A DNA stretch of 60,688 nucleotides, from positions 1 through 60,688 of the forward strand of contig NW_003314464.1 in assembly GCF_000143415.4 (NCBI RefSeq), in the 5' to 3' direction. The stretch is from Selaginella moellendorffii. Taxonomy: Eukaryota; Plantae; Lycopodiophyta. Shown here in pieces: positions 6,263 through 35,993 of this stretch (the stretch's first letter is position 1; every line of letters starts with the position of its first letter). Made by a program: the position numbers and the translations under genes. The notes beneath the pieces are model-generated. The model saw nothing but the letters and a program-made list of their open reading frames with translations, had not been told where the DNA came from and made no database searches.

Positions 6263-6446
6263 TTGGTATGTATTGATCATTCTTCTTCCTTTAAACTATT
6301 CCTGTGGCAGATTGGAGCACGGTGAAGCTATGGTATTTATAAAGGGTAGATCTAATGAGTTGAGCTTTAAAAACCCAGTTCCAGGTCTACATTTGAATTA
6401 ATGTTTTAGATTTAAACACTAACCGTGTACAAGACAAGTAACAAAC

Positions 6447-9400: not shown

Positions 9401-9630
9401 CTACGCCAAAGTTGGTCTAGAGCTACTTAGGTGATGGGTAGAGCTTAGGATAGGTATCCACCGGATAAGGATCAGCATTGTCGGGATGTATCCTATCAAG
9501 TGGGAGATCAGGTGTGGCTATCTTCCCGAAACTTGAACATTAAGGGATCTTTGTCTTAGAAGTTATTACTAAGATATGTTGAACCCTATCGGGTGTTGAA
9601 ACGATTTGGTGATGTATCATATCGGTTAAT
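6447..9630 (+). mobile_element. Degenerate Ty3/gypsy pol (protease-RT-RNaseH-integrase)
   Basis: Protease MIDMGATHS; RT SPYGVPVLFV...RMCINY...LDLRSGYHQI...YIND; RNaseH HCDASGYA and YKPGKDN..PDALS; integrase [24 protein letters not shown]. Many stops and frameshifts. Confidence 0.93.
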
Positions 9631-9939
9631 TGGGCATTTTGAGTGTACTTAGACTAGACAAGCATAAGGACAAAATTCTTATGTGCTATTAGTTAAGCAT
9701 AATTAGCCCGGTAAGGAGTGTCTTGCACTAGCTAGTGACAAGAACCCTCGCGTATTGAGACTAATCCCTCAATATCGCTGGATGATAGCTTACCGTGTCT
9801 GCCAAACACCCTCACTATCATGCCCTTTGTATTAGTCTTATTTCGGTCCCAAATGCTAATTATGGAAAGTATCTAGATTTGCTCATTTGGAATATCTATA
9901 GACTGTAGAGATTGTCTTGAACATGAAAGGGACTGACAC

Positions 9940-13539: not shown

Positions 13540-14733
13540 TCATTAGTTTTCAAAAGAGATGCTTACAACATTGTCATCTTTTAGTAATACTTAATAAAAA
13601 ATACAAAATACAAATATTGATGATATAGATAATATTATATATGCAAAAATACCTAATCCCAATGAAGATTCAGAGTTATATGAGTTGGTAAAAAAACAAA
13701 ATGACATATGAGCCTTATGAACCTGGATTTATAAATAATCGTTGTTATAGAAATGGTGCTAAGTATCCTTGGTCAATTTCCATAGTATAGATGACTAGAG
13801 CATGGATATTATATACAGATATTGACCAAGAAAATAAATAATCAATTTTTGTGCTATATAAAAATATCTTCTTCATAAATTTGCAACTTATGTGAATAAC
13901 AGTGAATAGAATTTTATATATATATGAGAGAGGCATGACTGTGCCTTAATAAATCTTTGAAAAGATAGTGATATAAGTAATGAAAAATATTAGACTCAGA
14001 TGAAATTACTGCCTTCTGAAATTGCCATCTAAGTCCATAACCATCTGAGTTTATGTAGAGAATATTTAGGTATGATTTACCTAGACAACCTCATAGAATT
14101 GAAATATTATAAATATATCTCTCAAATTTACAAAGTGTTTACTTTAATGAAGGTGAAGCAGAAATCAATCCCGTACAGCAACAATTCCCAGGCNNNNNNN
14201 NNNNNNNNNNNNNNNNNNNNNNNNNNNNNNNNNNNNNNNNNNNNNNNNNNNNNNNNNNNNNNNNNNNNNNNNNNNNNNNNNNNNNNNNNNNNNAATCTAT
14301 AATCATACCATTGTGAAGCAACACCGGGCGCGTCTTTTAAAAATTATTTTCTATACATAAATATGCATATAAATGAAAATGACAAGGAATGAAGTAAATG
14401 GCTTAAAATAAAATGCAATTGAATTATCATTAAAATGTACATCTAGGGAAGATATGATTGATGTTGTGTTTAGTAAAGATATATCAGCAAACAATAATTT
14501 TACACAGAGCAATACTTACATCACTTAATGAAGAATCATTATAAATAAATGAATAAGTATTGTCATGCAGGATGGGTAAATTGTTATCCTACAAAAATAT
14601 TGATAATTTTGAAAGATGACATAGTAGATTTTCCTATTGAATATCTCAACTCAATAACACCATCTGATATGCCTGCACATATTTTAAGTATTAAGGTTAG
14701 ATGTGTTGTTATGTTAATGCATAATCTGGATAT
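13540..14733 (+). mobile_element. Helitron Rep/Hel pseudogene, left part
   Basis: HUH motif remnant FQKRCLQHCHLL and IDNIIYAKIPNPNEDSELYELV. PIF1-helicase segment PIEYLNSITPSDMPAHILSIKVRCVVMLMHNLDI, cut at 14733. Confidence 0.88.
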
Positions 14734-14735
14734 AA

Positions 14736-14757
14736 GCTCTATTTTGTTAAAGTGGGA
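14736..14757 (+). repeat. Left terminal inverted repeat
   Basis: GCTCTATTTTGTTAAAGTGGGA, the exact reverse complement of 35970-35991. Confidence 0.95.
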
Positions 14758-17700
14758 ATTGTCATTATCCCACTTGTAAAATAAGGTTTCCAAACCTTTA
14801 TATAGTATATAAATATAACAAAATTCAACTACATTGAAGCACATGCCATTTTATTTTAAACAAGGAAATGTCTACTCAATCACTTCTCCTCCCCCTGCCA
14901 CTGCTTCACCTCTCTCTTCTCTTTGTCATCGTCGTCCAATTTCTTTCCATCCTTTTAATATTGGCTCAGTTGCTCCAAGTCTAGGTGGAGCCCAAGTCCC
15001 CATTCAATCTTTACTTTCCCCCTATTAATAAAACAACTTCGTAAACTTCCAATAACATGTTGTAACACTTCTAGTATAATGCAAATCCTCTCAAAGAATT
15101 GTCTTTTAATATTAATACAATGGCATGGAACCCCATGCCATAATAAGTTACATTTTTAAATAAATACATGCCATCTCAGACTGTTATTTTTTTCCTCCAA
15201 CGCCTATACAATAATCTTGGAATTTCATCACTCTCCACACTATCAGGATTTAAACCCAATAGTAATGCCATCTCTTCTCTAATACATCCACGCTCATGTT
15301 CAGTGGTCGAAGAACCCATCCGGTTGAGCAGATTATAGAGATGCGGATAGTGCTTGGCTAGACAATATACATGCCATAAATGATGACTGGTGTCTGTCAG
15401 ACCAAATGGCTTCTGATATACCGTTCCATCTGCCATTTGGTTGATTTCTGCAGCCACCTTCTGGACTGGCCGGTTCTCTATCACCATCGCTCCAAGCCGT
15501 TTTGCAAGGTCCCCTAGAACATACGGTTTCTTCTCCCTAGTTTCCATACTACAAGAGATGGGGTGCACTGCATATGTGTGCGTGTTCGTTGCAGTTTTAA
15601 TCGGCGAGTCATCGATGATGAGGATTTCACTTGACCTAGCAGTCCGGTTCATCACTACAGCCTCTGGCTTGACGAAGATGGGCTTGCTACCCCTCACATG
15701 GACCATAGTCAAGCAATCCTCCTGCGTTAGGAGAAAGTCAAATGGTAATATTACTCGCGTTTGATCGTGCATCATCTGTAGCAATGTTAATGCATTGTGG
15801 CGCATCATGGATGTCCAAACTCCCAATTGCAAATTGAACCCGGCCCTTTGTTTTAAGTGTCGCATGGTCATTATTAGATCCCGCAGTTTCTCCCGTGTGA
15901 TTAATGTGAATCTATCTCTTTTGACCAACTTGCGACCGCAGGCTTTGGAGGGTGCAGTGACATTCGAGGACGAGCCACGCTCATGGGAGAAAAGGACACC
16001 GTTCAGATAAAAAACGATACAGTACCTTTGCCGTGACTCTGAAATGAAATGCATTAGCATAAAAAATGGTACAAGTCAATTTTACCATCTACAATATTAG
16101 CGAATGGTGCTCCCGATGGTCGTTGAGAGGGTTTTGGTCGAGGAAACGTGAAGGGTGGAAATACTCTCCTCTGCAATGTGGGGTCAATCGCATTCGATGG
16201 CGTGTGGGCACATGCCATTTCAGCTGTAGACTCTGGTACAACTGGCTCAACAGTGGCATGGGGTGGTTCCGATGGCGTGTGATCACACGCCATTTCAGCT
16301 GGTGCCTCTGTTGGCAAAGTGGACATGACCGAACAGGCAGCAAGGGCGGTGTAGGGAGGTTCCAACGGCGCATAGTCAGACGATTGGGCACACGTTGAGT
16401 CCGTTAGAAATGAGGATACGACCGGCTTGGCGGCTGGGGCGGCCTCATGCGGGTCCAATGGCGCCTGGTCACCGTCAGTTGGATACGTGGACAAGATTGA
16501 CTCAGTGGTATGGGCAGCATCAAGTGGAGTGTGGTCAGCTTGCTTGGCGTTGATATGGATAGTAGCCTCCACCAGCTCTGATGACTCTTGCAGGCAAGTA
16601 GAGTCCACTGGCGGATCCATATGCATGTCCAAATATCTCCCTTCGATTGAGATGGTATCCTCCCTACTAGCTACTAAAAACAAACTCATTAGCACATTGA
16701 ATCGACTATACTGTATTTACCATCAACTACTATTGAGGAACTAGGACCGATATCACTTGGGCACACTGCTGATTCTGAAGAATTGGACATATGTTTCGAC
16801 CCTTGCTTGGCACTATCCTTCCTTGACACTAAAGGCTAGAGTTTGTATCTTAATTCAACTGAATAATCTCTACTTACCATTTGCTCTGCGACCTACATGG
16901 ACAATGTTAGAAATGGTAAAAGGTTAGGAATGGATGTACTATTATTTACCTGATGGTTTGTCTTGTATGACCTTCCTCCGCTGCTCTTTGGCCACCTCAG
17001 GCTGGCTATCGTCGTCATCATCGTCGTCGTTGTTATTGTGATCGTCACCATTGTGAGGACCATCTAAGTCCTCTTCGTCCTCCTCTTCTTTGTCCTCCTC
17101 TTCGTCCTTCTGCTCTTCCTGCTCATTATCTTTCTCTGGCTCCTCATCCCCCTCCTGCATTTCTTCCATAGGCTGCTTAGGCTGGATGGCTTGTTCTTCT
17201 GGGACCATCTTGGGAAAATCATCTGGCCAAGTCTCCATCTCAAAATACAAGACATCCATAGCCTGTTTTAGTGCGTGACCTAGGACCGTATCCTCACCCG
17301 ACTGTCTTAACATGGTTTTTACACGTTCTTGCACCCTTTGAAGATGACGAGATGAGAAAAATGTGGCCCTGACTTGAAAAGCATCCCTCATCTATTGTAC
17401 CTCTTCATTGAGATTGGGGAAGGGGAGTCTGCTATAGGAATCTGAGTCAGGAGGTGGTGACTGGCTGCTTTCACTCAGCCCTTGATCTGCAATGAATGGC
17501 ATGAGCACACACGCCATAACCGTGAGGCATTACGTATCATCTTTTCGTTGCCCTTCTTCCTTTTCGAATCAAAAGCCTCTGATCCCGACGATTGTCCAAC
17601 GTGCTTTCGCTTTTTATGACCACTGTCAGTTTGAGCTTGGCTGGTGCTTGCCTGTTTTGCCTTTGAAGAAGTGTCTCCTGCTAGGAATGGCATGAGACCA

Positions 17701-18466
17701 CACGCCATTGCAAATATAATTTGTACCTCCTTTTTTCCTATTGCTTGTCTGTTTGTCCTTTTTCGACGCGCCACCAGTGCGCTTTTCAGTCCTCGTGTCT
17801 GAATATTCACAACGATCTATAATCAAAATGGCGTGAGGCCTCACGTGACCTTACCTTGTGCAGGTTGTGAGCTCGGCCCAACATGGGTATCTTCAACAGT
17901 AGCTGTTAACGCCGTTTCAGCATCTGGGGGTGGCCACGCTCCTGCATACAGAGCTTGTGAGATAACATTTAAACTTAAAGTGCGTACTCACCAGGTTCGC
18001 AGAGAAGATACTGTTTTTCTTTGGCAACTGTAATTATATGCTCCATTGAAGTCACCTCTTCAATGGAGTTTGTCACCGCAACACACGGGACACCCTTGAG
18101 TAGTGCGGCTCGAAAGAATAGTCCGCCGCAGTTGTACTCGACAACGCATTTGCCCTTGGAGTCGGAAGCAGGTGACCCACCCGCTATTGCGTTGAAGACC
18201 CAGCTGAGCATTTCCCATGCTGCACCTGGAGCTTTCTCTGGATTCGAAAGCTCCATAGCCATCTTCAGTTCCTCAGGCACGGGTAAATTGACCTCCCTCA
18301 GATCAATTCGATCGGCCTTGTCGAACGAAGCTGGGAAGTCACTCCAGTCCCACTCTGCTGCAGGACCAATAACAAGGGCGAGTGTGAAGATGCGGACATT
18401 CGTTGGTATCTTCTTCTTAGCCATTATCCCATGGATCTCCCGCATCTCCTTGCCTTTCAATCGAGC

Positions 18467-19631
18467 TGTAAGGAACCGACTCCCCGAGATGTCGTAGGCT
18501 AAAGGATCCCCAAAAGCTTGACCGAAATGACAAAGAGTTCATCGGATGGGACCAAGTCGAAGATCGAGTCCAAGACCAACTCTAGGACCGAGTTCGAGAT
18601 AGAGTCCAGAATCGAGTCCGAGACCGACTCGGGGACCGAGTTTGAGTCCGAGTTCGACACCGAGTTCGAGACGGAGTCCGAGATCCGAAATCGGGTCCGA
18701 GACCGAGTCCAAGGTCGAGTCCGAGGTCGGGTCCGAGATCGGGTTCGAGATCGAGTCCGAGATCGAGTCCGAGACCAAATCCGAAGTCGGATCCGAAATC
18801 GGGTCCGAGATCGAGCCAGAGACTAAGTCCAAATACTAATACGGGTCAAGGGGTGAAAGCCCAAAGCGTGCATCTCCCAGGGGGGGGGGGGGGGGGCTGC
18901 AGGGGGTTCCAAAAGTATAGTAGGGATAGTGAGGTCCAGGAACCAGTCTTGAAGGAACTCTCCGGTGGTGCTTCCAAACTGACTTGAGGTTGAGACTGGG
19001 GCCGAGGGGCCTTGGGTGGGAGTGAGCATGGGCCTGAGTGGTGCCGGAGGGGCCACCCAGGGAAGTGCTCAAGAGCAGCTCCCACTCCCGAAAGGGAAAC
19101 CGACTGCGGTGCTCCCGGCTCAGGTGGAGTGGTGCCCCACTTGAGTACCTTGTGGCTCATTGGTCCTCGCCCTTCCTAGGGGCTTGGGCCTTCCCTTCGG
19201 GATGAAAGTGGGGGGGTAGAGGTACCCATACCGGGCCGTTAGGCCATGGTGTTTTGCCCCGACATCCCGAAGCAAGTGCTGCACCCAAGACTTGGGATTT
19301 AGAGGGTCCCATGATCAAGTCTTGTGGTACCAAGGGGTGTTAGGAATCTGGAGGCTTGGTGTGCTTGGCTGTTTGTGCCTGCGGGGAGTGTAGCCGAACC
19401 TTAAGTCCAGTCTAACCCGGGGAGGGGGATTGGGAGAGATTTGGGAATCCGTAGATGGATGGCTAACACTCCGTTGTTCATGTAGTAAGTAGTTGAAACC
19501 AAGTAGGACCAAGTAGGAGCTGGTACCATAGGCGGGAACCTTGGCGAGGGAACTTAGCACAAGCCAAGGCAGAGTTGGTCGGATAGACGAGGTAAGCTGG
19601 CAAATTGGAAAGGAAAAATTTGTGGCTTACA
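18467..19631 (+). repeat. 5' LTR
   Basis: TGTAAGG...GGCTTACA; near-identical to 25548-26703; contains a CCGAGT/CCGAGA hexamer array. Confidence 0.95.
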
Positions 19632-19634
19632 ATT

Positions 19635-19646
19635 TGGTATCAGAGC
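19635..19646 (+). promoter_or_regulatory. Primer-binding site complementary to tRNA-iMet
   Basis: TGGTATCAGAGC, 3 nt after the 5' LTR end. Confidence 0.93.
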
Positions 19647-22600
19647 TTCTTCCTCAGTTCTAGCGAAGGATAGAGGCGGATTGCTGGGAGATGGCGAGGG
19701 CAGGACGTAAGAGAACCCAGGCAGAGACGGAACCTCCTCCAGAGCTGGAGCCTCCGGTCGAACAGGAGGCTATGGATGAGGAATCCTTGCATGAGGAGGA
19801 CTCCAGTGAGGCAACTTCCAAATAGGAGTCTGGTGGTGAGGTTCGGTCGTCCAAGGCTCGATTGGATGCTCTAGAAGGACAATTGGCACAGACCAATGCC
19901 CTGCTAAAGACTCTCATACGCAAGCTAAAGCGTGACGAGAAGCGGAAGAAAAAGCGAAAGACTGCGGATGCTGGTAGCGCAGAAGGTGCGGACCCTTCGG
20001 CAGGGACTGAGGCAAAACCAGACAAGGTCGAAAAGACCAAAGTGGAATCAGTCCCTCAGGCAGTTCCCAAGTACAAACCAAAGCCCCCACCGGTCTTCAA
20101 GGGAGTGAACGACTATAAGGTGGTGGAGGATTGGTTTTACGATATGGAGGACTACTTCCGAGCGTTGTGATTACCGAGCTCAAAGAAGGTCCCATGTGCA
20201 AAACCATACTTGGCGGATAATGCCAAGTCTTGGTGGAGAACGACAGAGGCCAACGAAGGATCGGTGGCCACTTGGGAAATGATGAAGGCAAGGATCCGCG
20301 CAACTTACGTTCCTCCGAATGCTACTCTGCATCTAAGGGACGAGCTGAGTAGGCTGAAGCAGACTGGAACCATTCAGGAGTATGTGAATGGGTTTATGGC
20401 AAAGAGGATACTTGTCACGGACATGGGGGATATGGATGCGTTCCATGCCTTCATATCAGGTTTGCAAACCTTGGCTCGCGGCGAGGTAATGCGGTGGAAC
20501 CCGACCAACTACAAGGAAGCGTTGGATGCGGCCATCAAGGTGCATTTCAACGATAACCTGCGAAAGGGGAACACGACGGGGTCGGGATCCACGTTTAGCA
20601 AAGGGGCCAAACCAAGGGGAACGTTTAGCAGAGGGAAATTCAAGAAGAGTTTCTCTAAGAATGAGTCCTCGAGGTTCCGGAAAGGCAGATCCGATGGCCA
20701 GCGAGCGAGTACTTGGGGGAGCTAAGCGAAAAGAGACAAACCCATGGATAAGAAGGTCAAGTCGTATAGCAGCGTGGGAAACAATGTATGCTACAACTGC
20801 GGTGAAGCAGGACACTTCTCGAGGGAATGTCCCTACTCGAAGAAGGCCAGAGCCAATATGGCCATCAAGTCGGGTGAAGTCCAAACGGAGGTATGTGATC
20901 CAGTCCCTAACTCAAAGTTACTCATTACACAAGCAACTTTGGTAGAGAGTCGTTCGCGACATCTACTAGCCCTCCAAAGGAAGCTCAGAGGTAGCTTTGT
21001 TAAAATCCTTATTGACACGGGTGCTTCGGATAATTTTGTGGCTGCAAACATAGTCTGGCAAGCCGGACTAACGGTGCAGCGGCTAGGCGATCCAAGGACT
21101 ATAGAGTTTGTTCAAGGTAGCCAAAGCACCGATGAGGTACTTCGACAAGCGAGAGTCGAAGTGGGGACTTGGAAGGTGGACATGGATTTCACCATGTTGG
21201 ACATGGCGGGATTTGACGTGATCTTCGGAATGGACTGGTTCAATCGATTTGTGGTAGCCCTGCATGGACAAGGTAGAAATCTTGTGGTACTGGCGAATGC
21301 CCAAGGAAGAAGATCTAGGGTGGAGGCCCAAGATCCAAAGGTAGGGCAAAGCATGGCCAAAGATTCCTGCTTAAACCTGGTGTCCACGAGAGGACAACTA
21401 ACTAAAGGAACTAAGGCGGCCTTTTTGTGCTTACTCTCGGTGAAGAGTGACAAAAAGACAGGAATGGAAGAAGTACCTTTAGTGATCCAGCAGGTGTTGG
21501 ACCAATTCCAGGATACCATGCCGGAGGAGCTACCGGCGGGGCTACCCCCAGCACGACCGATAGAACATAAGATTGAGCTGGTCGAGGGTGCTGAGGCAGT
21601 GGTTCGTCCCCCTTATCGTTTGAACGAAAAAGAACTCAAGGAGCTCAAGTGCCAACTAGAGGAGTTGGTGGACAAAGGGTATGTTAGGTTGAGCAAGTCG
21701 CCGTATGGGGCGCCGGTGTTATTTGTGAAAAAGAAAGATGGATCTATGCGCATGTGCATAGACTACCGGTTGCTCAACAAGTATACAAAGAAGAACAAGT
21801 ACCCTTTGCCAAGGATTGAGGACCTGTTCGATAGGTTGGGAAAGGCAAAATACTTCTCGAGGATTGACCTAAGGTCAGGATACTACCAGATCAGGGTAAC
21901 CGAGGAAGATGTCGAGAAGACAACCTGTCGAACGAGGTATGGGAGCTTTGACTTTCTGGTGATGCCCTTCGGGCTATGTAATGCACCAGTAACGTTTTTG
22001 GTGCTAATGAACCACATCTTTGTACCCTATCTGGATCACTTCGTGGTCGTCTATATCGACGACATCCTGATCTATAGCGAGACGCTAGAGGAGCATGCCG
22101 AACACTTGGCGAAGGTGTTTGAGAAACTAAGGGAACACAAACTGTATGCTAAAGAGAGCAAATGTGACTTTGCTCAACAAGAGGTAAAGTTTCTTGGGCA
22201 TGTGGTGGGCCAGGACGGGCTCAAGGTGGACCCGGAGAAGGTCCAAGCGATCCAGGAATGGGAGCGACCATCCAATGTACACGAGTTGAGGGCATTCCTG
22301 GGGCTATGCAACTACTATCGAAAGTTTATCAGACACTATTCGAGAGTAGCCCTGCCTTTAACGGACCAAACGGGAAAAGGGAAGATGGTGTGGACAGCGG
22401 AATGCGAGGCGGCATTCTTCCACCTCAAAGGGAAGTTGAGGAAGGCTCCCGTATTGGCATTATCAGACTTTGGTAAGGACTTTGAGGTAGAAACGGATGC
22501 TTCGGACTTTGCGTTGGGCACAGTTTGAAGCAAGACAACCATCCGGTAGCGTTCTTCTCGAAGAAGTTGGACAAGGCTCAACGGAAGTGGCCTGCCCACG

Positions 22601-23563
22601 AGAAGGAATTGTTTGTGGTGGTCAAGGTGCTGAAGGAGTGGCGACACTACCTTGGGAGACACTTCAAGGTTTACACGGACAATGTGGCAACGAAACACTT
22701 CTTGTCACAGCCCGACCTAAGAGGGAAACAAGGTCGGTGGGCCAATGCCTTCGCTGAGTTTGATTGCGAGATTCTGTACAAGCCTGGGAAGAGCAACATC
22801 GTGGCGGATGCGCTAAGTCGAAAAGCGAGCTTGAGGTTGGCAATATCCAGCGCAACAGCAACCTTCTGGGACGATGTGCGGATAGCATATGAGAACGATG
22901 GTCTAGCACAAGAAGTGTTGCTGAGGAATCTAGAGGTGCGGGAAGCTCACCAGAGAGGTGAGCTGCCAGCAGAGGAGAAAATGGGCTATGCAGAACGCAA
23001 CGGACTCATCTATTACAAGCAAACGAGGGTGTATGTTCCAGAAGGGGAACTAAGGAAGGTGGCCTTAGAAGAGTGTCATGACGGACCTCTTGCGGGACAC
23101 GACGGAGTGCCCAAGACGATGGGCTTACTCAAAAGGAAGTACCATTGGCCAGATATGGCTAAGGACGTCCAAGACTATGTAAAGACATGTCCAACATGTC
23201 AGCAGGTAAAAGCCGTGACTAAGGCTAGTGGGGGCTTGTTGCAAAGCATCCCAATTCCAGATCGCCCGTGGAAATGTCTTACGATGGACTTCATCACGGG
23301 ACTCCCCCCAAGCGAGGGGTTTGATGCGATATTCGTGGTGGTGGACCGATTTTCTAAAATGGCAAATTTCATACCCACCACAACGGAAGTGGATGCGGAA
23401 GGTGTGGCGAAGCTGTTCTTCGAACAAGTGGTTTGAGTGCGGGGAAGGCTGGAAGAGATCATCTCAGATCGAGATAAAATCTTCACCAGTAGGTTTTGGA
23501 GGACTCTCCTGGAACAGTATCGCACCAAGCTAAAATTCAGCACAGCCTATCACCCACAGACAG

Positions 23564-23610
23564 GTATTGGGTATTAAGTCAAGTTTAATGGCACTAACAC
23601 TTCTTGACAG
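23564..23610 (+). other. 47-nt GT-AG intron in the integrase core
   Basis: HPQT-G|GTATTG...CACTAAC...TTGACAG|AC-GQT. Splicing restores [12 protein letters not shown]. Confidence 0.85.
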
Positions 23611-24028
23611 ACGGACAAACAAAAAGGGTGAATAGGCAGCTGGAGGATTATTTGCGATGCTATGTCTCGGGAGACCAGACCGATTGGGTAAGTCATTTGG
23701 GACTTGCGGACATGTGTTATAACAACTCACCACATTTGAGTATCGGGGTGAGTCCATGGGAAGTCATCAATGGGCGAGCTATTGAAGGTCCTGTGGAACT
23801 CGGCGTGGCCGAGTATCATGGAGAGTTGCCCGCAGTAGAGGCATTCACGGCGGAAAGACTCAGCATTTGGAATCTAGTGAGGGATTCCTTGGAACGGGCT
23901 CAACAAAGGCAAACCAAATACGCGAACCAGAAGCGTCGGGATGTAGAGTTCCAAGCTGGGGAGAAGGTGTGGCTGAACACCAAGAACCTCAGACTACCAA
24001 GTGGGATCAGCCGAAAGTTGACCCAAAG

Positions 24029-24080
24029 GTAAAGATGCATGTATTCCTGTAAATGAATTGATCTTGAGTTCCTTAAGCAG
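24029..24080 (+). other. 52-nt GT-AG intron in the integrase C-terminal region
   Basis: KLTQ-AG|GTAAAG...TTAAGCAG|G-FAGPY. Splicing restores KLTQRFAGPYKI. Confidence 0.85.
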
Positions 24081-24351
24081 GTTTGCGGGGCCTTACAAGA
24101 TTGAGGCACGAATCGGTAAAGTGGCTTACCGACTCCGACTTCCTCGAGAGATGGGGAAGATGCACCCAGTGTTCCACGTGAACTTACTCAAGCCGTACTT
24201 TGAGGATCCGCTTCGCAAGGACCAAGTGAGACCTTTACCTGAGGTTATCCAAGGGGAAGAGGAATACGAAGTTGAGGCCATCCTCAATGCGCGCAAGAGC
24301 AAGCGACAAGGACGCAAGGTGAGAGAGTTCCATGTGAAGTGGAAAGGATTT

Positions 24352-25027
24352 TGTAGCGCACCTTATCTCTCTCCCCTTAAGCCAACTGGAAAAGGGGCAA
24401 TTTGCTTGATGAGAGAGCCCTTAGTGGCTATTTTATCCCCATTTATCCCCCAAGGTTCCAAGGATCCACGGTGACAGTATATCCAAATCTCATCCCATGA
24501 TCACATGCGCTACACTCACCCCCCCTTCAGAGATGTCAATGTCCTCATTGACTATTGACTAGCAACCCCTACTGAGCCAAGGGGAACCAGCACCTCCATT
24601 TCCGCACTCAATCTACCAATCCTTCCATTGTGTAGACTAGCTATTCCATGTGAGGCAACTAGTCATCCACCCGTACCGCAGTCCCACGGTGGATACCTTC
24701 GTCCGTGGATACTCCACACAAGAGGAAGGACGTACGCATGGATGCCCAATACGTACGATTTCAAATTTAGGGGTAGGAATATACCTTGCTCAAGGGTATA
24801 TTATACTTTTTAAGTAGCCACTAATCAATGGGAATCGAACCCGTGCCATTTGCTCTGATACCAATTGTACCGCACCTTATCTCTCTCCCCTTAAGCCAAC
24901 TGGAAAAGGGGCAATTGCTTGATGAGAGAGCCCTTAGTGGCTATTTTATCCCCATTTATCCCCCAAGGTTCCAAGGATCCACGGTGACAGTATATCCAAA
25001 TCTCATCCCATGATCACATGCGCTACA
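24352..25027 (-). mobile_element. TRIM (terminal-repeat retrotransposon in miniature), 676 bp
   Basis: LTRs 24352-24514 and 24866-25027 differ by one substitution and one indel and have TGTAGCGCA/TGCGCTACA ends. TSD GATTT at 24347-24351 and 25028-25032. Minus-strand PBS at 24852-24863 and PPT at ~24515-24528. Inserted in the host chromodomain. Confidence 0.95.
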
Positions 25028-25547
25028 GATTTCCACACTGCGAAGCAACATGGGAACCGGAGGAGAACTTAGCGAACGCACGAGATCTAGTGGAGGAATT
25101 TCTGCAAGGCAGAACTCTATGTACTTATGCAAAATTCAATTAAAAATAATCAATTTGCAAAGTTGAGCAAGTGGCATATGTTGGGACCCGAAGGCGCGCC
25201 GAAGGTAAGCTAATTAGCATGGGTTGGATAGGTCGACCAGGCGTAAGGCACTACGCCCGACTCCCCACAGGGATGTCGAATCCGTAGACGTATTCTACGG
25301 AGGTTGGGTTCGAGTCCCAACCCCCTAGTAAAGCAAGGCTGGGTTCAAGTCCCAACCCCATACTAGGGCGTGGTGAGGTTAGGGGTATAGGGACATCTAT
25401 ATTCCGTTGTCATGGGCTTTTGGCCTGGGAGGCTAACTTAGGCACACTGCTAAGTGGGGGGATGCCCCCGGAGACATGGTCAACAAGTCGTGGGATAAAA
25501 CGAGACGTTCGATGTGGGCATCGAACTTCTTCTATGGGTGGTGGAGT

Positions 25548-26703
25548 TGTATAGAACCGACTCCCCGAGATGTCGTAGGCTAAAGGATCCCCAAAAGCTT
25601 GACCGAAATGACAAAGAGTTCATCGGATGGGACCAAGTCGAGGATCGAGTTCAAGACCGACTCTAGGACCAAGTTCGAGATAGAGTTCAGAATCGAGTCC
25701 GAGACCGACTCGGGGACCGAGTTCGAGTCCGAGTTCAAGACCGAGTTCGAGACGGAGTCCGAGATCCGAATTCGGGTCCGAGACCAAGTCCGAGGTTGAG
25801 TCCGAGGTCGGGTCCGAGATCGGCTCCAAGATCGAGTCCAAATCGAGTCCGAGACCGAATCTGAAGTCGGATCCGAAATCGGGTCCGAGATCGAGCCAGA
25901 GACTAAGTCCAAATACTAATACGGGTCAAGGGGTGAAAGCCCAAAGCGTGCGTCTCTCAGCGGGGGGGCTACAGGGGGTTCCAAAAGTATAGTAGGGATA
26001 GTGAGGTCCAGGAACCAGTCTTGAAGGAACTCTCCGGTGGTGCTTCCAAACTGACTTGAGGTTGAGACTGGGGCCGAGGGGCCTTGGGTGGGAGTGAGCA
26101 TGGGCTTGAGTGGTGCCGGAGGGGCCACCCAGGGAAGTGCTCAAGAGCAGCTCCCACTCCCGAAAGGGAAACCGACTGCGGTGCTCCCGGCTCAGGTGGA
26201 GTTGTGCCCCACTTGAGTACCTTGTGGCTCATTGGTCCTCGCCCTTCCTAGGGGCTTCGGCCTTCCCTTCGGGATGGAAGTGGGGGGGTAGAGGTACCCA
26301 TACCGGGCCGTTAGGCCACGGTGTTTTGCCCCGACATCCCGAAGCAAGTGCTGCACCCAAGACTTGGGATTTAGAGGGTCCCATGATCAAGTCTTGTGGT
26401 ACCAAGGGGTGTTAGGAATCTGGAGGCTTGGTGTGCTTGGCTGTTTGTGCCTGCGGGGAGTGTAGCCGAACCTTAAGTCCAGTCTAACCCGGGGAGGGAG
26501 ATTGGGAGAAATTTGGGAATCCGTAGATGGATGGCTAACACTCCGTTGCTCGTGCAGTAAATAGCTGAAACCAAGTAGGACCAAGTAGGAGCTGGTACCA
26601 TAGGCGGGAACCTTGGCGAGGGAACTTAGCACAAGCCAAGGCAGAGTTGGTCGGATAGACGAGGTAAGCTGGCAAATTGGAAAGGAAAAATTTGTGGCTT
26701 ACA
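25548..26703 (+). repeat. 3' LTR
   Basis: TGTATAG...GGCTTACA, followed by TSD CGAGC. Confidence 0.95.
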
Positions 26704-29700
26704 CGAGCCTTCACCTCGTTCAAGGCCTTCCAGAACTTGTGATAGGATTCGGAGTCGTAGATTATATAGTGGACTGAAGATTCCACCTCCGCAAGTCCCA
26801 CCATTAAGTCAATGATGGAGCTGACTTCGTCTGCATGAGTGATCTCCTCGTTTGTGAAGTCCATCACACAAAAGATGTTCTTGACCTGCTCATCTCCGCG
26901 GGAAACGATGCTCCTCCACCTTTAATCCTCATCCAAATTCACGTATACCCAGTAAGGTTCTGGATAGGCCTCTGCTGTGGGGTCGAGCTGTTTCTGAAGC
27001 CGGCGGTCAACATCCCTCTTAATGAAATTTGGATACTGATCCAACTTCTCAGCTTTACTTTTCGTGGCATCCCGCAGCAGATCGATGAACTTGGGGGCCC
27101 CCTTCACGTACTCGTCGATGTCTTCATTTGACAACTCCAGCTCTTCCATCATCTCTTGCGTGGTGTCGATGCTCACCCTCTCCACGGCCACTTGCTCGAA
27201 GATCCAATCCTTCAATAGCGCACGAGCTCTCAGAGTCGTGCACAAGTCCTCGTATGTCATAATATGGCCGGGAGTCATTTTGGTCTTGTTGAAGACTACC
27301 TTACCACGTAGAAGAGCATTAGCCACTGTTAAAAGGTCGTCGTCGTCTAGAGACCGCGAGAAACGCAAGGCGTTGAGCTTCAAATCATTGGGCTTCCGGC
27401 CGTCCTCCACACCCATTGAGTTTAGCAACTCCCCGTTATGGTACCTCCTCAGCACATCTACCCATTTGTCAAAAACAACTTTTGTCGCGAGTAGAATGTT
27501 ATGGATGCTAAGTGTGTCATTGACCCCCACTGTTTTCGAGAGAAGACTCGAGAATTCCTGCAATGGAAATGGCGTGAGGCCACATGCTATGCCACATGCA
27601 ACGAGGCTTACCTGCCAGGTGCTAGTTGCTAGTGCACGTCCTTGTCCTGGTTTTTGTGGCTTCTTCAGTTGAACTCAGAGCTTCCGTATTCGTGCCAATG
27701 TCTCGTGCAGACCCGATTTGTAGCACGTTTCTTGCTTGACATTCTGCGCATGGGAGATGTATATGATAGATCGGAGGGGTGAGTTGCCTTTTATCAGGCG
27801 GACAACTCTTGTCTTGAAGACTTTCTTCACCTCCTCGCCCACCATAATATCCACAACTATCTTTTGCATCGCCAAGCTAGAATGCTGCCCGGAGACGGCA
27901 TAGAACCGGATGTTCTGATCGTCCAACACCTTCCTATTGATCAAGTCTGGAAACCTCGTCTCGCCCTTCATTGTTCGGTAGTAGGGGATCACGTCTACGA
28001 TGTCGGGTGTTACTGGCCTTGCCAGCATCTTCTGCTTCAGTTTCTCCACCCACTCATCAGATACTAGCCTGTGGTTGTATTTGCTTTGGATGTCGATACG
28101 GCTCACGTCGATTGTATATACTTTGTTGGAATAGTAACAAGTACTATTATCTGCGACGATTTTTGCTGCCTCTTCTTGCTCTTTCTGCTCTTTGCAACTC
28201 TTCTTTTTGGTGGGTGTAGTGTTCGAACCCGAGGCAATGGCATCACCGAGTAGCTTCTTTTTTGGAGCAGGAGAGTCGGACGTCGGCTTGAGCTTGACCA
28301 CCCTTTTCTGCTTCGGGGTAGTTTCCAGATCGACCCCCTTCCCCTTCGCTTCACGAACTCGAGGCACTCTCAACAGCTCAATGTTGGAATATAGTTTTTG
28401 AACATCGCCGTAGGTGAGGTCCGTGGATTCCATGTGATCTTCATAGACCCGCAGTGTCTTTGAAATTGTGGGCCTCCTGGACAACCTCTCCCTAGCTCCC
28501 TCTAGGAGTTCCTCATAGCCGCTGCCCCCCTCCGGGAAGCCGCTAGGATGTGCAAGGTGGATCTTGAAGGCGGACGCTGTCTCTACCACAAGTGCCAGTC
28601 CATATTCTTGCATGGAACTGCATGGAGTGTCTGTCACTTGGATAAGGATCCCCATGCATTCTTTTCTCCCACCATCTGTGTTGTACAGCCTCAGATCCTC
28701 GTCTTCCATCCCGAAAGTCCAACTGGTGAGCTCCTCCCCCTTCTCTGCATCCACATTGATAGTGGCTGGAAGAAGAACGCAATTCCTCGCCTGTTCAGAA
28801 ATGCACAACAATTAGAGCTGACAGATGAAAAGCTAGCAGCTAGAAAAAATGTGAGGCCACACGCCATTCACCACTGCATCAGATGTCTTGAGGCTGCATC
28901 CTAAGATGGCGTGAGGCTACACGCCATCTGTAACCGGACTGCACTCGAGAGCCCAATCGGTGCATGCCAATGTTGCTACTGAATGGCATGTGGCCTCATG
29001 CCATTTTCTACTTGGCCTAAAAGACTTACCATTTGAAGCCGAATGGAGGCGTGACAACCGGACTCGTTGGCGAATGTGCACTGTGTGTGCAGCGGATCGT
29101 AGCAGCAAGGCTACTCTGCCACTTACAGTTGGAGAGTGGCGCTGAAATCTCCCGGGACGCCAAGTGGGCTGCGTGTGGGTGGCGGAGTGGGCGGCGGAGT
29201 TGGCGGTGAAGTTACAAACTAGGTGTGTCTTGAAGTGGACGCCGATGCACACGAGCGCGATGCGAGCGCGAGTGTGATGCAAGCGCGAGTGGATGCCGAT
29301 GCACACGAGAAACCTGTAGAGAAGGTAGATGAGCGCCAATGTGAGCGTGATCGCGAGTGGGAGCGCGATGCGAGCATGAGTACGAAGCAAAATGCAAACC
29401 CTAACCTCACACGCGCGAAATGTCACGACGGTTGGTAATCCCACAACGTCATCATTTCTCGGACTTGGGCGCCACCATTAATTTCTGTATCGCCGCGCGT
29501 ATGCATGCACGTGAAATCCAAAAGAAATCCGCAACGTCATCATTCCTCAGACTGCATGCACGCAAAATCCAAAAGAAAGATCATGATTGGGATATCATTT
29601 AATACCCTCGCTATATTTATACCATGCATGATTGGATATTCCAAAGCATCTTGTATTTCCAAAAATGCCAGATGTTCAGCTAAATAAAGAATGGTATACA

Positions 29701-30057
29701 ATGTCCTTCTTGATGACCCTGCAAAGAAGCATCTCGATCAGACACCACATGAGACCACACGAGCCTTACAATGTTTCAGGGGCATTTGCCATAGATCCGA
29801 CCGTTATTTTGCTCCAAGATTCTACAGTTTGGTGTGCATTGACCTTTCCATCAACACTGCAAAGGGACATCACAATCAGATGCGGGATCACAAGAAACTA
29901 ACTTCACTAACTCTGGTTTCACCAAGATCTACGTAAGGAGTTATGAAATGAAAGGACCCTCTCTATTGAAATGTGTTTATGGTCCTAGGGGCATTGTGAC
30001 ATATCATGGATTTTGCATCAAGTTCTGTATTTGCATGTTTATCAAGCTACTGAATTG

Positions 30058-30083
30058 CTAAACCCTAAACCCTAAACCCTAAA
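30058..30083 (+). promoter_or_regulatory. Plant telomere-type (AAACCCT)n / telo-box array between the divergent genes
   Basis: CTAAACCCTAAACCCTAAACCCTAAA. Confidence 0.6.
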
Positions 30084-31205
30084 CATGTGGCAAATGCTGC
30101 ATGAAGAAAGATGCCCTTTCTAGGCAAATGCTGTAAGAGGCAGATGCCGAGCAGATGTATCTCAAGTTAGCGAAGGGGACAAACAAAAGCTAGCTATAAA
30201 CATGACGGGACGCAAATAGATTACTAGGCTGGTCCTGCGAAAATCAAAAACCATAATTGAAAACATTGAAACTGCAAAACGAAAGGTTTATAATATTTTT
30301 GAATTTTAAGCAACCAAAGGAATGTAAGTAGGGCATGTGTTTGTAAGTTTAAAAATGCCTCAACCACTTAAATTCCCAAGTAAATAAAGTTGTTTCTATT
30401 TTTGGTACAGGTAAACTTTATAGCGTGTGGGCTCATGCAATTTTGAACCCAAAAATGCACCAAAAAATGCTTGACTAGCATTATTCTTTGAATGGCGTGT
30501 GGCCTTATATTGCCATAAATGGACGTACACACACAGCATAATTATTCCTTTACACGGCGAATAATCTTGGCGCGGATCGCTGACATGGCATGGCAAAGTT
30601 CGAATCACTGACATGGCACAGCTGGATCGAGGCAAGGACATGATGTGACAAAGTTCAACCTCCGACAGCAAAGTCTAGAAGCTACTCAGTTTGAAATTTG
30701 TCAGAGGAATCATAAGATCTGGTTTGTCAGAGGATTTGATGTGACGTTCAAGCGTGTGTTATTTTTGAATTCTCGAACTCATTCCTAGGTCTATCATTTT
30801 TGTGCGCCGTGTTCTTGGTTTCGCTGAGTGCAGTGAGCGCTACTTGTGTAAGCGGCGTTGTGAGCTGTGGTTTATGCGTCTACGAGCGGTTGCGGCATTG
30901 CGAGCGCCATTGCGAGCGGCAGTTTATGCGAGTGGCAGTTTGTGCGAGCGGCGCTACGAGCAGTTGCGGTGTTGCGAGTGGCACTACAAGTAGTTGCGGT
31001 GTTGCGAGCGGCACTGTCTTTGGTGTGGCTACCGCTTCCTCTTGATATTCGGCACTTGTGCTTCCTGGTATGTTCACCATGGAATGGCTTAGGACCACAT
31101 TTAGAAATGGCATGAGGCCACATGCCATCTTGGGCCCTTGCAATTTCATGGCTAGCGTATTGTCATGTATGTTTTTACTTGCCTGCAGCTGTGTGTATAT
31201 CAAGA

Positions 31206-31395
31206 TGGCATGAGGCCTCATGCCATCTTTGACCCCTGCTAGCCTATTGCCATATTCCTTTTGCCTTGCTGCAACTGTATATATTTTTGTACGGGTGACT
31301 AGTCACACACACAAAAATATATACAGTTGCAGCAAGGCAAAAGGAATATAGCAACAGGCTAGCAGGGGCCAAAGATAGCGTGAGGCCTCATGCCA
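31206..31395. repeat. ~190-bp near-perfect foldback upstream of the transposase
   Basis: Arms are symmetric about 31300/31301 (centre GTGACTAGTCAC); each arm ends in a 22-bp palindrome copy. Confidence 0.9.
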
Positions 31396-31548
31396 ATTTT
31401 GTGAATGCGAAATTTCACGTGGGTGTCAATAGCATGTTTGAATAATGGCATGTGGCCTCATGCTATTGAGGTTGTTTGGTATGTTATGATTTAGCCCATT
31501 CTCCAATCATTTTTTGTATGGTCTTAACTTCTTTTCTGCACTTTCAAA

Positions 31549-34446
31549 ATGGCCTCCGCAAGTGCGACGCATGTTCCCTCCGTGGATATTAAGAACCGTG
31601 CTACATGGATTCAGGTAAAGGTGTTTCTAAACAACCCCGAGGGGGAGGTGGTAGCTGAGGGCTTAGCCACAGTTGTCGATCCAAGAGATGCGGTTGCTAA
31701 TCAAGAATTGGGCTGGGATGATATTGGAGTTGTGATTTTAGAGGTTGTTGACACAGAAGAAAACAGTCTGACTATTGGAAGCATTGTGCGGTGGAAATTG
31801 AGGCACTTAGTGTTTGAGAATGTGAAGGATTCACAATCAAACACCACTACAATTGATGACAGAACATCTCTTCATGGGAAAAGAAAGTACACCTTTCTAA
31901 AGCGCAGCCAAAGGGATCTGAGCAACGAACCGAAAAGGCAGAAAATGGCGATGGAGGTTCGAATGGTCTCGACAGTTGCTTGTTGCAAGAGGAGGTGCTG
32001 TCAACATGCTGATTGGGATGCTATTGAAGAGGAGAGAGCAAGATACAAGACATTGTCCTAGAAGGCAACTCGCAATTTTGTGTATGAGGCATTACAGTCA
32101 TCTGTTGATGCTTCAGAACATCAGGTGGGGGGCATGGTCTTCTAGAAGGGTTTGGTCTGCATGAAGGCATGGAGAATCATTTATGGAGTCCCTCGAACCA
32201 CATTCTATAGAATCAAAACTGAGTTCGAGGAACAAAGGGTTCAACAGGCAGTCCATGGGAACGACGGTACTCACAAAACCAGGGGTCATGTTGTATATGG
32301 AGAGGCAATCTTCAAGAGGTTTATCGAGACATGTAGCGAGCAGCAACCACATAAAACCTGCCTCTTGGAAGATGGAACTCGAGACACCCAACGAGTTCTC
32401 CCTTCCATGTATACCAAGGGGGCCATATTGGAAGATGTGAATCGGGAACTCTAGAGTAATGGCTACAGGAAGTTGAGCCAATCTAGATTTAGTAGATTGT
32501 GGAGCAACAGGTTCAGGGATGTGAGTATAGGAAAGTACTCCAGCTTTTCAAATTGTGACGAGTGCACTGCTATCAAAATGGCTTTGTCGAAGAATTCTTG
32601 CATCGCTCAAGAGCGAGAGACGTTGGTTAGAAGGCGGCTTGACCACAACATCGAGTAGAGAAGCTGCAAGACTGCATATTATCATAACAGGATTCTCTCC
32701 ATGGAGAGACCTGACTCTTACCTCTGCATCATCCACGACAAAATGGACTAGAAAAAGACGTGCTTACCTCGACTCAATCCTGCCCCCAAGGCAATCTCTT
32801 CATCCATGCAGCTGCCTGTGTCTCTGTTTGGCATAATCGCTCATGGGCATGGTGCCCAAAACTATGGGAACTTCTTTGTACCTCTATGGGGTGGCGGGGG
32901 TGCAAACATGATGATTGCGTCCTAGCAAAACACTTAAGGTCTCTGCAAAGTGCGCAGACTGAGCTGAACGGCCAACCCTTGCATAAGGCCCTTGTCGATC
33001 GAACCCCATACGGGGTTCAGCTGGAGGAGGAGCAAAGGCTTGCAGTATTGCGTAGGGCCCCATGCCATCCCAGTGAATATGTTGGCCGTCAGATTGTAGG
33101 GTTATCACGTGAGGCCTCATGCCATTCCGACGAGGCTGGTCGCCCGGTGAATGCACAGCCTCATCCAAACGAAGCAGAATCTCAAGGAAGTTCTTGCAGC
33201 CAATGTGGCCTTCCACCCCATCTTCTGCTCCAAACAGACAATGCTGGCAGTGAGAACAAAAACATGTACGTCTTCGCGTACTTGGCGATGCTTGTTGCCA
33301 AAGGCATATTTGAAACGGTTACACTTGGCTTTCTCATGGTTGGGCACACTCATGAAGACGTCGATGCCATGTTCAGTCACCTGGCAGAGTCCCTCCGGCG
33401 ATCCAATGTCCTCACCCTCCCACAACTCTACGATGAATTCCAAAATTGCATCAAAGGCATTGTTGAAGCTACACTTGTGACAGAGGTTCCAGACTTTAAG
33501 GGGTTTGTAAGAGGCTACATTAGGGACGGATCTGAAATGCTGATTGGCCACTCCAAGCCTCTTCAATTTTATTTCAGCATGCGTGACGGTGCTCCAGTGA
33601 TGAGGTACAAGATGAGAGAATGGGACACAGTGTGGCTGCCAGTGGACGGCATTGAACTCTTCAAGAGAGATCCCATAACTGGGGAACCTATGATTCCTCA
33701 GGGTTCCCCACGGCCGATGCACCCGGATGGACTCAAAGACCAAGAAAGTATAGTGGCCGGGATTAGACAACATATTGCCTTCTGGAAGAGGGGGTTGGTG
33801 TATTGTGGAGAATCCTATTTTAAGAGGTGCAAGCCTTTGCTCGAATACTGGGAGAAGATTATATCTGCTATCCAAAATGGGCCGGTTGTATATGAAGAAT
33901 TGGAAGAGTCCTTTTGGCCAGAACCCAGAGCACCAGATAGTAGCAGAACAATGTCCTCTGGAAATGCAGTGACAGATAACGATGTTGAGGATCACTATTG
34001 TGGGCCGAGGAACAAGAAGCCGAATTCAGCATTCAATCCAATACAAGTCTGCAAAGGAATGGTCGTGCTTGTCAGACCCAGTAATAAAAAAAAAATGATA
34101 TGGGTGGGGCGTTGCATCACTGATGCAGAGGAGGATGCGGAAACTAACTCCTTCAATGTAACTGTGGAGTGGTTCAAGCCAAGTTCTGGATATACGAAGG
34201 ATTGCCTAGAAAAGAGATGGGTGCTGAATCCAAGGGATCCTAGCATGAGCATATCGGTGGATAATGTTGTGCATGGTTGGATGCGGAAGCAGAGTGCCAC
34301 CATCACCTTGCCAGACCATGCAAGAGATGCAGCAAGAGCATTCATAACCCGGGTTCAAGGTGAGATTCATTAATATTCCTTTACTAAGTTTCTAATGTAT
34401 TTTATTTCAAGGTGAACAATCCGAATCTGAATCAGAGGAGGCGTGA
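31549..34446 (+). pseudogene. DDE transposase, Sola/DUF7869-like, with a TNP1/En-Spm-like N-terminus and a BAH/Tudor-like C-terminus
   Basis: One frame from ATG 31549: VAEGL...DP...LG...W; CCKRRCC; VCMKAW...YG; HGN; FSNCDEC...H; LCIIHDKMD. Frameshift at ~32910, then LLLQTDNAGSENKN and FLMVGHTHEDVDAMFS. C-terminus VLVRP...IWVGR...VEWFKP. Last intron 34360-34411, stop at 34446. Five in-frame TAG stops. Confidence 0.85.
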
Positions 34447-35076
34447 TGGCATGTGGCCTTACGCCATTCCTAGGTGAGATGATACAAATAACAAGTATAA
34501 ATTCTTAGTTGTTCTAGCAAATCTTACTTAAAGTTCAAGGTGAACAAGCCGAATATGAATTCATCGGATTGTTATAACAAATTGCGAGGTGATGGCATGA
34601 GGCGATACGCCATTTGAGAGTGGTAGCCATTCCTATATGAGGTGAGTGAAATATTTATTAGAAATACCTCATTCAATTGTGCACTTCTAAGTCTTGGTCC
34701 ACTCAATACTGTTTGCATGTTTTTATTTTAATTCTTTCTCTAAAATGTTATTTAGCATGTGGCTTCATGCCATTGCTCTCCACAATCATGCATTGAATTT
34801 TTCTATCCTTGCATAATACTTCTCCATATATATAGCATGTGCACACATATGATATGGTTCATTAGGCCTGATATAGTGTGTGAGGTAAAACAAAGATGAT
34901 GTGATACCAATCACACGTGCATAAATCTAATAATATGGCGTGTGGCCCATATTAATGGCACATAAACCCATATTGTGGGCTTACGTGCTTTATGTACCAT
35001 CATTCCCTTGCAGCATGTGTGTTGGTTTCCTTTTATAACACAACGAACTCCATATTTTAGGGTGAAGAGCGTTCTC

Positions 35077-35334
35077 ATGGCAAGCACAAAATCTGTAAGT
35101 GAGGTAAAAAAGGAGACGGAGAAGGAGATAGGTGAAGATGTAGAATATATAAGTCTTCCAAACTCCCCGTACTATACTCCAGGTGATCATTTTTCTGAAT
35201 AAACGGCAACATTAACAACTATCGAGAACGCCCCAGTAACGTCAGAGACAACAATCCAAAGCAAAACAACTGACCCAGAGAAGGATGATAGTACCGCTGA
35301 GAGTACCAAAAAGGAGGTGTCCACTAGCGCTTAG
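35077..35334 (+). pseudogene. Possible small acidic/Ser-Thr-rich ORF (85 codons, one internal TAA) inside the transposon
   Basis: MASTKSVSEVKKETEKEIGEDVEYISLPNSPYYTPG...; the frame continues through TAA at 35200 to TAG at 35334. Preceded by a TTTTAG acceptor and followed by a palindrome. Confidence 0.3.
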
Positions 35335-35969
35335 GCTTATAATGGCGTGTGCCCTCATGCCATTTACTTGATCACCAAATACCTTTTTCCCTTTGCACTA
35401 GTATATCTAATACCGGTCTGAGAAATAGAATGGCATGTGCCCTCAGGCCTTTTACTAAATCACCTTTGAAAGAAATGCAAGCCTCTATGTCGTAAAAAAA
35501 AGGTACTAGAGAAATTCCTTAATAATATGAATGTTATTTAGTTTCATGAAAATACACTTAGGGTCAAATGAGTTAAATGACTTCTCCAGACTAGCAATGC
35601 CTCTTGCTACACCTTCACAATTAGATTCATTAGAAAAAGATAATATTGAATAATATCTAAATGTTCTCACCATTAAGTTATATGTCTGGCTAATAGGAAT
35701 GACGTTCATCTTGGAAAGCTCACCACACGCTCAATGAACAAACAAATAGTGTGTGCGCGCATGCCATCGCTCTTCTTTAGCTTCAGATTCAGCTTGTTCA
35801 CCTTGACAATGAGATTTATTATACAACCAGATGGACTCAGTCTGGACACAAAGTCACCGCGCTAGTCACCATGCCCCAGATATGTCTAGCCCCTGGACAA
35901 AAAACATATAATTTCACGTCATTTTCAAATACTTGAAAATTTGTACCTAGTCCCATTTTACTGAATAAA

Positions 35970-35991
35970 TCCCACTTTAACAAAATAGAGC
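35970..35991 (-). repeat. Right terminal inverted repeat
   Basis: TCCCACTTTAACAAAATAGAGC. Confidence 0.95.
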
Positions 35992-35993
35992 AT

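Follow-up and report, generated by a model that had tools for sequence, protein, structure and literature searches.

A probable ParB-to-HAD gene as the second gene of a high-copy 13-kb DNA transposon in Selaginella moellendorffii

Sola transposons encode a DDD transposase, generate a 4-bp target duplication and end in inverted repeats of 11-1,124 bp (PMC10741241; PMC4455052 and 10.1101/2021.09.26.461848 give classification context only). Sola1-1_Ec32, a 21.5-kb element of the brown alga Ectocarpus with AACCG-CGGTT ends, a 4-bp duplication and a best match to the Physcomitrella Sola1 transposase, carries on the opposite strand a gene for a ParB-like domain joined to an N4/N6 methyltransferase; the protein was proposed to bind the element that encodes it and to modify it (PMC12477816). 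In red algae, the ParB-like PAG3 adjoins inverted repeats in Plavaka (EnSpm) transposons, and PAG3/PAG2 were suggested to bind the transposon that carries them and to modify it (10.1101/2025.02.11.637652). ParB-linked methyltransferases have also been described in phages, chlorophytes and chytrids (PMC4738411). ParB-type second genes of giant transposons are therefore a kind already known (PMC12477816; 10.1101/2025.02.11.637652). Here we analyzed a 60,688-nucleotide stretch of Selaginella moellendorffii DNA (contig NW_003314464.1; the window), on whose minus strand a preliminary description, made from the sequence alone, had placed a ParB-to-HAD fusion gene at 15176..29032. We conclude, with a probability of about 0.93, that this gene is the second gene of a high-copy 13-kb DNA transposon inserted in a Helitron remnant, that is, a transposon accessory gene.

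The transposon occupies 14734..35993 and measures 13,023 bp without a nested long terminal repeat (LTR) element. It is bounded by 24-bp terminal inverted repeats (left, 14734..14757, plus strand, starting with AAGCT; right, 35970..35993, minus strand), which match each other at 23 of 24 positions, and by a 4-bp target duplication, ATAT, on the plus strand (14730..14733, second copy 35994-35997). The insertion splits the remnant of a Helitron-type Pif1 helicase on the plus strand (Pfam PF21530, E 2e-5), the left half of which lies at 14561..14733 and which resumes at 35998. The helicase frame is kept in two of the seven boundary models with a matching inverted repeat, and it reads through the empty site. 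Contig ends favour 14734/35993 with the 4-bp ATAT over a model with a 2-bp TA, a choice that concerns one insertion only.

Contigs from other sequencing runs were compared with the window over 14550-18560 and 34200-36250. The runs represent three samples (X6 and X11 one sample; X4, X16 and X19 another; X1 possibly the source sample). In X1, the summed contig depth, which does not give a copy number, changes exactly at both ends of the element from ~210-360 outside to ~500,000-900,000 inside. The small runs have the element assembled at depth 40-160 and its flanks either missing or at depth 2-11. Four contigs (from X4, X6, X11 and X16) leave the element at 14731/14734 and 35993/35994 into four other flanks, where the bases next to the ends are TTAT, TGTA, AATG and CAAA. 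These data establish the boundaries of the element, its target duplication and its membership of a high-copy family. Because the depth steps, the foreign flanks and the restored helicase frame all fall at the inverted repeats, the gene inside belongs to the 13-kb high-copy transposon. The preliminary description had recognised no plant host gene in the fusion, and it is indeed not an ordinary host gene; the setting in a high-copy DNA transposon had been missed.

Head to head with the ParB-HAD gene lies a divergent DDD transposase (DUF7869) on the plus strand at 31549..34373 (Pfam PF25273, E 2e-39). Five TAG stops and, near 32920, a frameshift disrupt it. Among its 37 homologues are proteins of two liverworts (Riccia sorocarpa and Calypogeia fissa), of a coral and of a sponge. 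One homologue, P0020, is identical at 434 of 457 positions in the N-terminal half, and none of the five stops is shared by it, each position being a residue there, although it too goes out of frame further on. The motifs D-K-M-D, D-N and G-H-T-H-E-D are conserved across the homologues, as in a DDD-type transposase, and they suggest which three aspartates would be catalytic. In a tree of 29 rows (leaving out P0020 and rows with too little sequence ahead of the GHTH motif), the transposase groups with P0001 and P0003 with support 99/98; the tree holds no reference superfamily members and hence gives no classification. With its 4-bp ATAT duplication and 24-bp inverted repeats the element has the features of Sola, and it is likely Sola1-type, judged on the DDD motifs, the 4-bp duplication and the layout, not on comparison with reference Sola transposases. 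We infer that DUF7869 would equate with the Sola1 transposase; DUF7869 is unmentioned in the papers turned up by our search. Two other superfamilies were considered and rejected. EnSpm/CACTA elements, including Plavaka and Chapaev, have CAC...GTG termini, whereas the ends here read AAGCT...AGCAT. Kolobok elements have a TTAA target duplication (PMC9587614), and neither the ATAT at this insertion nor the bases at the other flanks are TTAA. The transposase was found in none of 13 viral contigs and in no phage record. After the transposase, at 35080-35330 on the plus strand, there is a short open stretch, acidic and Ser/Thr-rich, possibly a further exon or a gene remnant. In a distant DUF7869 locus from metagenomes, L062, open reading frames (ORFs) lie on both sides of the transposase (2674-4005 and 5656-8524), one Ulp1-protease-like by eye and one divergent and apparently spliced.

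Compared by description and not by sequence, the element resembles Sola1-1_Ec32 in being giant, in its AA...TT ends (here AAGCT-AGC(A/T)T), in the 4-bp duplication and in the opposite-strand ParB-like gene (PMC12477816). The inverted repeats, however, are 282 bp there and 24 bp here, and the accessible account of Sola1-1_Ec32 does not mention palindromes of the kind described below. Its 1,104-amino-acid (aa) protein has a predicted N4/N6 methyltransferase and, in that account, no reported phosphatase, whereas here a NIF-like domain would end a 1,645-aa protein.

The exon-intron model of the second gene was rebuilt from its coordinates on the minus strand, and it gives 11 exons, 4,938 nt and 1,645 codons in a single frame. 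The predicted exon 1 is an ATG only (29032-29030), followed by a strong donor at 29029. Exon 2 (28790-27612) encodes the N-terminal region, a basic linker and a ParB/sulfiredoxin-like domain (about aa 220-395, with an SGQH motif). Exon 3 is split by the nested LTR element; its first part (27557-26704) encodes a helical region and the start of an alpha/beta domain and has no family match, and its second part (18461-17992) encodes the remainder of that domain, for which profile tests were negative. Exons 4 to 10 (16086..17941; exon 4, 17941-17855; exon 5, 17816-17727; exon 6, 17677-17534; exon 7, 17486-16950; exon 8, 16892-16878; exon 9, 16828-16721; exon 10, 16673-16086) form an acidic, low-complexity, Pro/Ser/Thr-rich linker flanked throughout by phase-1 introns of 38-57 nt, and exon 11 (16038-15176) encodes a NIF/FCP1-like HAD domain. 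There are three internal stops, at 27677 (TGA, exon 2), 26924 (TAA, exon 3) and 17394 (TAG, exon 7). All ten introns are GT-AG, with phases 0,0,1,1,1,1,1,1,1,1, and nine of them are 38-57 nt long (intron 4, 38 nt), similar to the 48 and 51 nt of two host introns nearby. The chain proposed in the preliminary description, from the ATG exon to the stop at 15176 with phase 1 in the last eight introns and an exon of 15 nt (exon 8), was thus reproduced in full. Its joining of exon 3 by removal of the LTR element and one copy of the target duplication is borne out by other copies, in which 18466 is joined straight to 26709 (one contig each from X6 and X11, one sample).

It is quite probable, judging from the frame and the intron pattern, that these exons are spliced into one 1,645-aa protein, with the ParB-like and HAD parts on a single transcript. 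The other, unlikely arrangement is that there are two genes, a ParB-like gene ending in the linker and a separate HAD gene, or that the linker exons are spliced otherwise. Such an arrangement would agree with the 1,104-aa length of the Sola1-1_Ec32 protein, for which the accessible account reports no phosphatase (PMC12477816). It would also agree with the lack of a full-length homologue among proteins of 689-2,000 or 882-2,515 aa, which is weak evidence, with alternative in-frame acceptors for introns 3, 4, 5 and 9, by which exact boundaries may shift, and with the absence of spliced reads over the gene's introns in the runs compared; run X20, which we guess to be RNA, crosses introns 6 and 10 unspliced. 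Against two genes, the last eight introns, all of phase 1, 38-57 nt long and with good donors, link the pieces without a frameshift; the gaps between the pieces leave no room for a promoter or for polyadenylation; and where other copies differ in length, they do so by multiples of 3 (3 and 15 nt within the compared half of the gene, X6/X11 contigs). In one X6 contig, a further acceptor of phase 1, which bears a palindrome, lies at 17639. At the protein level, all five exon 2 homologues have a Val near the position of the intron 2 donor and end 0-22 residues later, being unspliced ORF calls.

A 22-bp palindrome, consensus ATGGCRTGWGGCCWCAYGCCAT, occurs in 24 copies over 15120..35767. At no more than 4 mismatches, all 24 copies lie in the 13.0 kb of the element and none in the other 47.7 kb of the window, including the nested LTR element (0-1 in 40 shuffles); an independent count at no more than 3 mismatches gave 19 copies (0 in 100 shuffles). 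Since the consensus comes from the same copies, the count is somewhat too high, but the contrast between inside and outside is not affected. Seven copies lie in introns, two in exon 10, five between the two genes, two in the transposase and eight towards the ends. Of the nine intragenic copies, the seven in introns are in introns 1, 2, 4, 5 and 6 (binomial p ~1e-6). Within the window, then, the palindromes are restricted to the element, and in the second gene they are concentrated in the introns.

The position of the intronic copies could point to RNA hairpins that aid the splicing of very short introns instead of DNA sites, and in four copies the palindrome ends 9-11 nt before the acceptor. 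We hold this to be very unlikely: none of the five palindrome-bearing introns folds better than shuffles (z -1.14 to 0.90), which favours the palindrome as a DNA site, 15 of the 24 copies lie outside the gene, and five of the ten introns have no palindrome. The introns bear as well on the idea that the gene is a captured or domesticated host gene, either Pack-type cargo or a single-copy host gene. Its introns of ~50 nt are host-like and its NIF domain is of eukaryote type. Nevertheless, over its whole compared length the gene is high-copy and differs by ~2% from the majority sequence, the palindrome of the element stands in its introns, and homologue searches found no named host protein, so that a host origin of this kind is extremely improbable.

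Palindromes also occur near related transposases. Among 80 related metagenome transposase loci, four carry multi-copy palindromes of their own and different sequence (10 copies in L011, 9 in tandem in L054, 9 in L001 and 4 in L028; at most 2 in 30 shuffles each), and because of these loci the palindrome trait can be said to recur in the transposase lineage. These element-specific palindromes of 16-18 bp flank the transposase on one side or on both (L011, 51-351, 674 and 2836-2936; L001, 527-1583; L028, 63-1026; L054, 3406-3666). The 22-bp palindrome was not found in viral contigs. The main rival to self-recognition by the second gene's protein draws on these loci: the transposase might bind the palindromes in the manner of subterminal repeats, with the second gene being passenger cargo or acting elsewhere. 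Different palindromes at four related loci with no ParB-like ORF detected would be expected if this were so, as would the eight of 24 copies towards the element ends. However, the four palindrome-bearing loci are on contigs of 3.0-5.6 kb, none with both element ends, so a second gene is possible there, and 16 of the 24 palindromes here are internal, concentrated in the second gene's introns and between the two promoters. We therefore regard transposase binding as a possible explanation, at well below even odds.

Several other features accompany the palindromes. At 14775, contigs of X1, X6 and X11 diverge into a further palindrome copy, marking a subfamily with a different left end. A 932-bp deletion variant (34456-35389) is present at depth 26-32 in contigs of X4, X16 and X19, and its left break is the centre of a palindrome. 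Between the divergent genes, a 190-nt hairpin at 31206-31395 (95-nt arms, 92% complementary, no spacer) holds palindrome copies and is a possible source of small RNA. The bidirectional promoter region also contains three tandem plant telomere-type repeats (30060-30083 and 29398), which we take to be telo-box-like.

The N-terminal domain likely has a ParB fold, as far as structure models indicate. In a search of 1.84 billion representatives, exon 2 had five homologues (E 7e-6 to 1e-3), and ranks 1-11 of a Foldseek search with the domain model are all of ParB/sulfiredoxin fold (PadC, Noc, sulfiredoxin, ParB, KorB). A G-Q-H motif, with no Arg, is invariant in all eight aligned rows, and we presume it to resemble that of DGQHR-type relatives. 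At the other end, exon 11 matches the Pfam NIF family (PF03031) over 126 of 160 positions. Its motif I reads Y-L-N in this copy and D-L-N-G-V in the family allele (position 16009 differs in four of four runs), and a DD motif (IIDDSP) is present. Compared with FCP1/SCP phosphatases, the domain thus shares a weak match, the first Asp of motif I and the DD motif, and it differs in its D-x-N, its score below the cut-off and its being transposon-borne.

For the middle region, aa 586-840, a DNA methyltransferase was considered on its permuted look by eye and the analogy to Sola1-1_Ec32, and was rejected. Nothing matched it in Pfam, PHROGs, NCBIfam or PDB, nor among phage and plasmid sequences. Against a profile of beta-class N4/N6 methyltransferases (PF01555, 28 sequences), the region scored -2.1 bits, and 424 of the 760 reported shuffles scored as high; the glocal z was 0.42 (131 of 400 shuffles as high) and the hhalign probability 0.03%. 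The DPPY/SPPY and FxGxG motifs are absent, their by-eye equivalents being DFTN and YNCGG. A single-sequence model was unusable, with a predicted local distance difference test (pLDDT) score of 35. A dead methyltransferase fold is a lead only, and we do not claim it.

By analogy, we give somewhat better than an even chance to the interpretation that the second gene's protein binds the palindromes of its own element through the likely ParB-type domain and so marks the copies as self. As in ParB-parS, a dimer of the ParB-like part would sit on the palindromes spread over the element, and the short introns would hold palindromes within the gene at no coding cost. The FCP1-like domain would be brought to the element by the ParB-like part; tethered there, it might act on phosphorylated RNA polymerase II or chromatin proteins, by which the element would be kept transcribed despite host methylation. 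Tentatively, such anti-silencing is slightly favoured over a role as a structural factor that pairs the two ends, 13 kb from each other, though it falls clearly short of an even chance. Rather doubtful is a full bacterial-type site-and-clamp version, in which the ParB-fold protein would load on intron palindromes (the introns of 40-55 nt being purpose-built), spread, and tether a phosphatase of the type acting on the RNA polymerase II C-terminal domain; anti-silencing would then proceed by protein dephosphorylation and not by DNA modification, and the phase-1 palindrome introns would be exon-gain units.

Known self-binding systems offer partial parallels. With bacterial ParB-parS, Noc-NBS and KorB, the gene product likely shares the N-terminal fold, and in the element, as in them, a single palindrome is repeated many times on the same DNA; unlike in these systems, GQHS replaces the arginine-rich CTP motif, there is no ParA partner, the site is 22 bp, and the protein is eukaryotic, spliced and fused. 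VANC anti-silencing proteins of VANDAL transposons are reported to recognise repeated motifs in their own element. The protein here is likewise transposon-encoded and would bind repeated motifs of its own element, whereas no sequence relation to VANC is expected and anti-silencing is here a proposal. As for red-algal Plavaka, PAG3 is a ParB-like accessory protein with an equally weak assignment (HHpred E 0.29) and element-borne inverted repeats, but the transposase superfamily is another one, ParB is fused there to a 2-oxoglutarate (2OG) oxygenase, and the repeats are tandem beside the gene there and dispersed and intronic here (10.1101/2025.02.11.637652).

A number of results weigh against self-recognition by a ParB-to-HAD protein. 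Exon 2 and its homologues have no match in Pfam, PHROGs, NCBIfam or PDB sequences. The Foldseek E-values are 0.11-0.66, none reaching 0.001, at a template modelling (TM) score of ~0.2-0.3, and the fold model is weak (pLDDT 56, seven homologous rows). VIA-align on the same model was not informative: its best Z was 2.5, and PadC ranked 6 of 6 with Z 2.0. The ParB-like domain of the preliminary description therefore agrees with the 11 top-ranked structures but comes from a weak model with no E-value below 0.11. ParB CTPase clamps carry an arginine-rich CTP motif, GxxRxxA, and the exon 2 motif differs from it; given G-Q-H, clamp-like CTPase activity of the domain may be in doubt. In exon 11, the PF03031 match (E 6e-4, 19.9 bits, in a decayed copy) is below the 21.8 cut-off. 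Motif I of NIF phosphatases of the FCP1/SCP type is DxDx(T/V); in the family allele the first Asp is present and the second is Asn, which departs from this pattern, and phosphatase activity is uncertain for that reason. The fusion proposed earlier is thus upheld in that one frame holds both ends, and both of its domain calls are weak. To these points are added the lack of spliced reads given above and the metagenome loci: none of the 80, most of which are short or decayed, yielded a ParB-like ORF next to the transposase (best E 0.095, outside the core). A search of metagenome contigs for ParB-like loci gave 263 pattern matches, none of them confirmed.

The copy in the window is dead, decayed by C-to-T changes. 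Of 40 differences considered out of 95, the analysis rested on the 35 majority alleles within the element. C-to-T changes on either strand in this copy account for 31 of these 35, and 23 of the 31 are in CG/CHG contexts, which hold 31% of all C. The 27 coding differences comprise 8 silent and 19 replacing ones. This ratio and the CG/CHG bias are what a methylated copy would show under neutral decay. The nested, broken Ty3/gypsy chromodomain LTR retrotransposon (18467..26703, plus strand) was inserted into this copy later; it has a 5-bp duplication (18462-18466, 26704-26708) and LTRs that differ at 36 of 1,156 aligned bases. Its 3' part contains in turn a 637-bp element at 24391-25027 that resembles a terminal-repeat retrotransposon in miniature (TRIM), with two 124-bp terminal repeats (120/124 identical), a minus-strand primer-binding site and an apparent 5-bp duplication. 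At 9958-11230 and 42006-43350, in both orientations, are older sequences related to this LTR family that contain 12-bp tandem units. Two host genes with introns near 50 nt flank the region: an armadillo/HEAT-repeat gene at 39477-40360 (weak Pfam matches) and a coiled-coil gene at 4840-6270, which is interrupted downstream by an older gypsy remnant (6450-9700).

Neither a land-plant case nor a ParB-to-HAD fusion was found in the literature searched, in which subscription papers were thinly covered, and the element looks like a land-plant variant of the algal kind with a new C-terminal domain. Self-marking by ParB-like proteins of giant transposons was proposed in two algal genome papers of 2025, and the element extends this layout to a land plant. 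It also names an exact candidate site, the 22-bp palindrome with 24 copies and none outside the element in the window. A phosphatase-like domain, as a third kind of effector after the methyltransferase and the 2OG oxygenase, suggests a modular design of a ParB address plus a swappable effector. As the transposon family is abundant and young, it should be possible to obtain intact copies and to test binding directly. For annotation of seed-free plants, the locus is a warning that such spliced genes are parts of transposons and not host genes.

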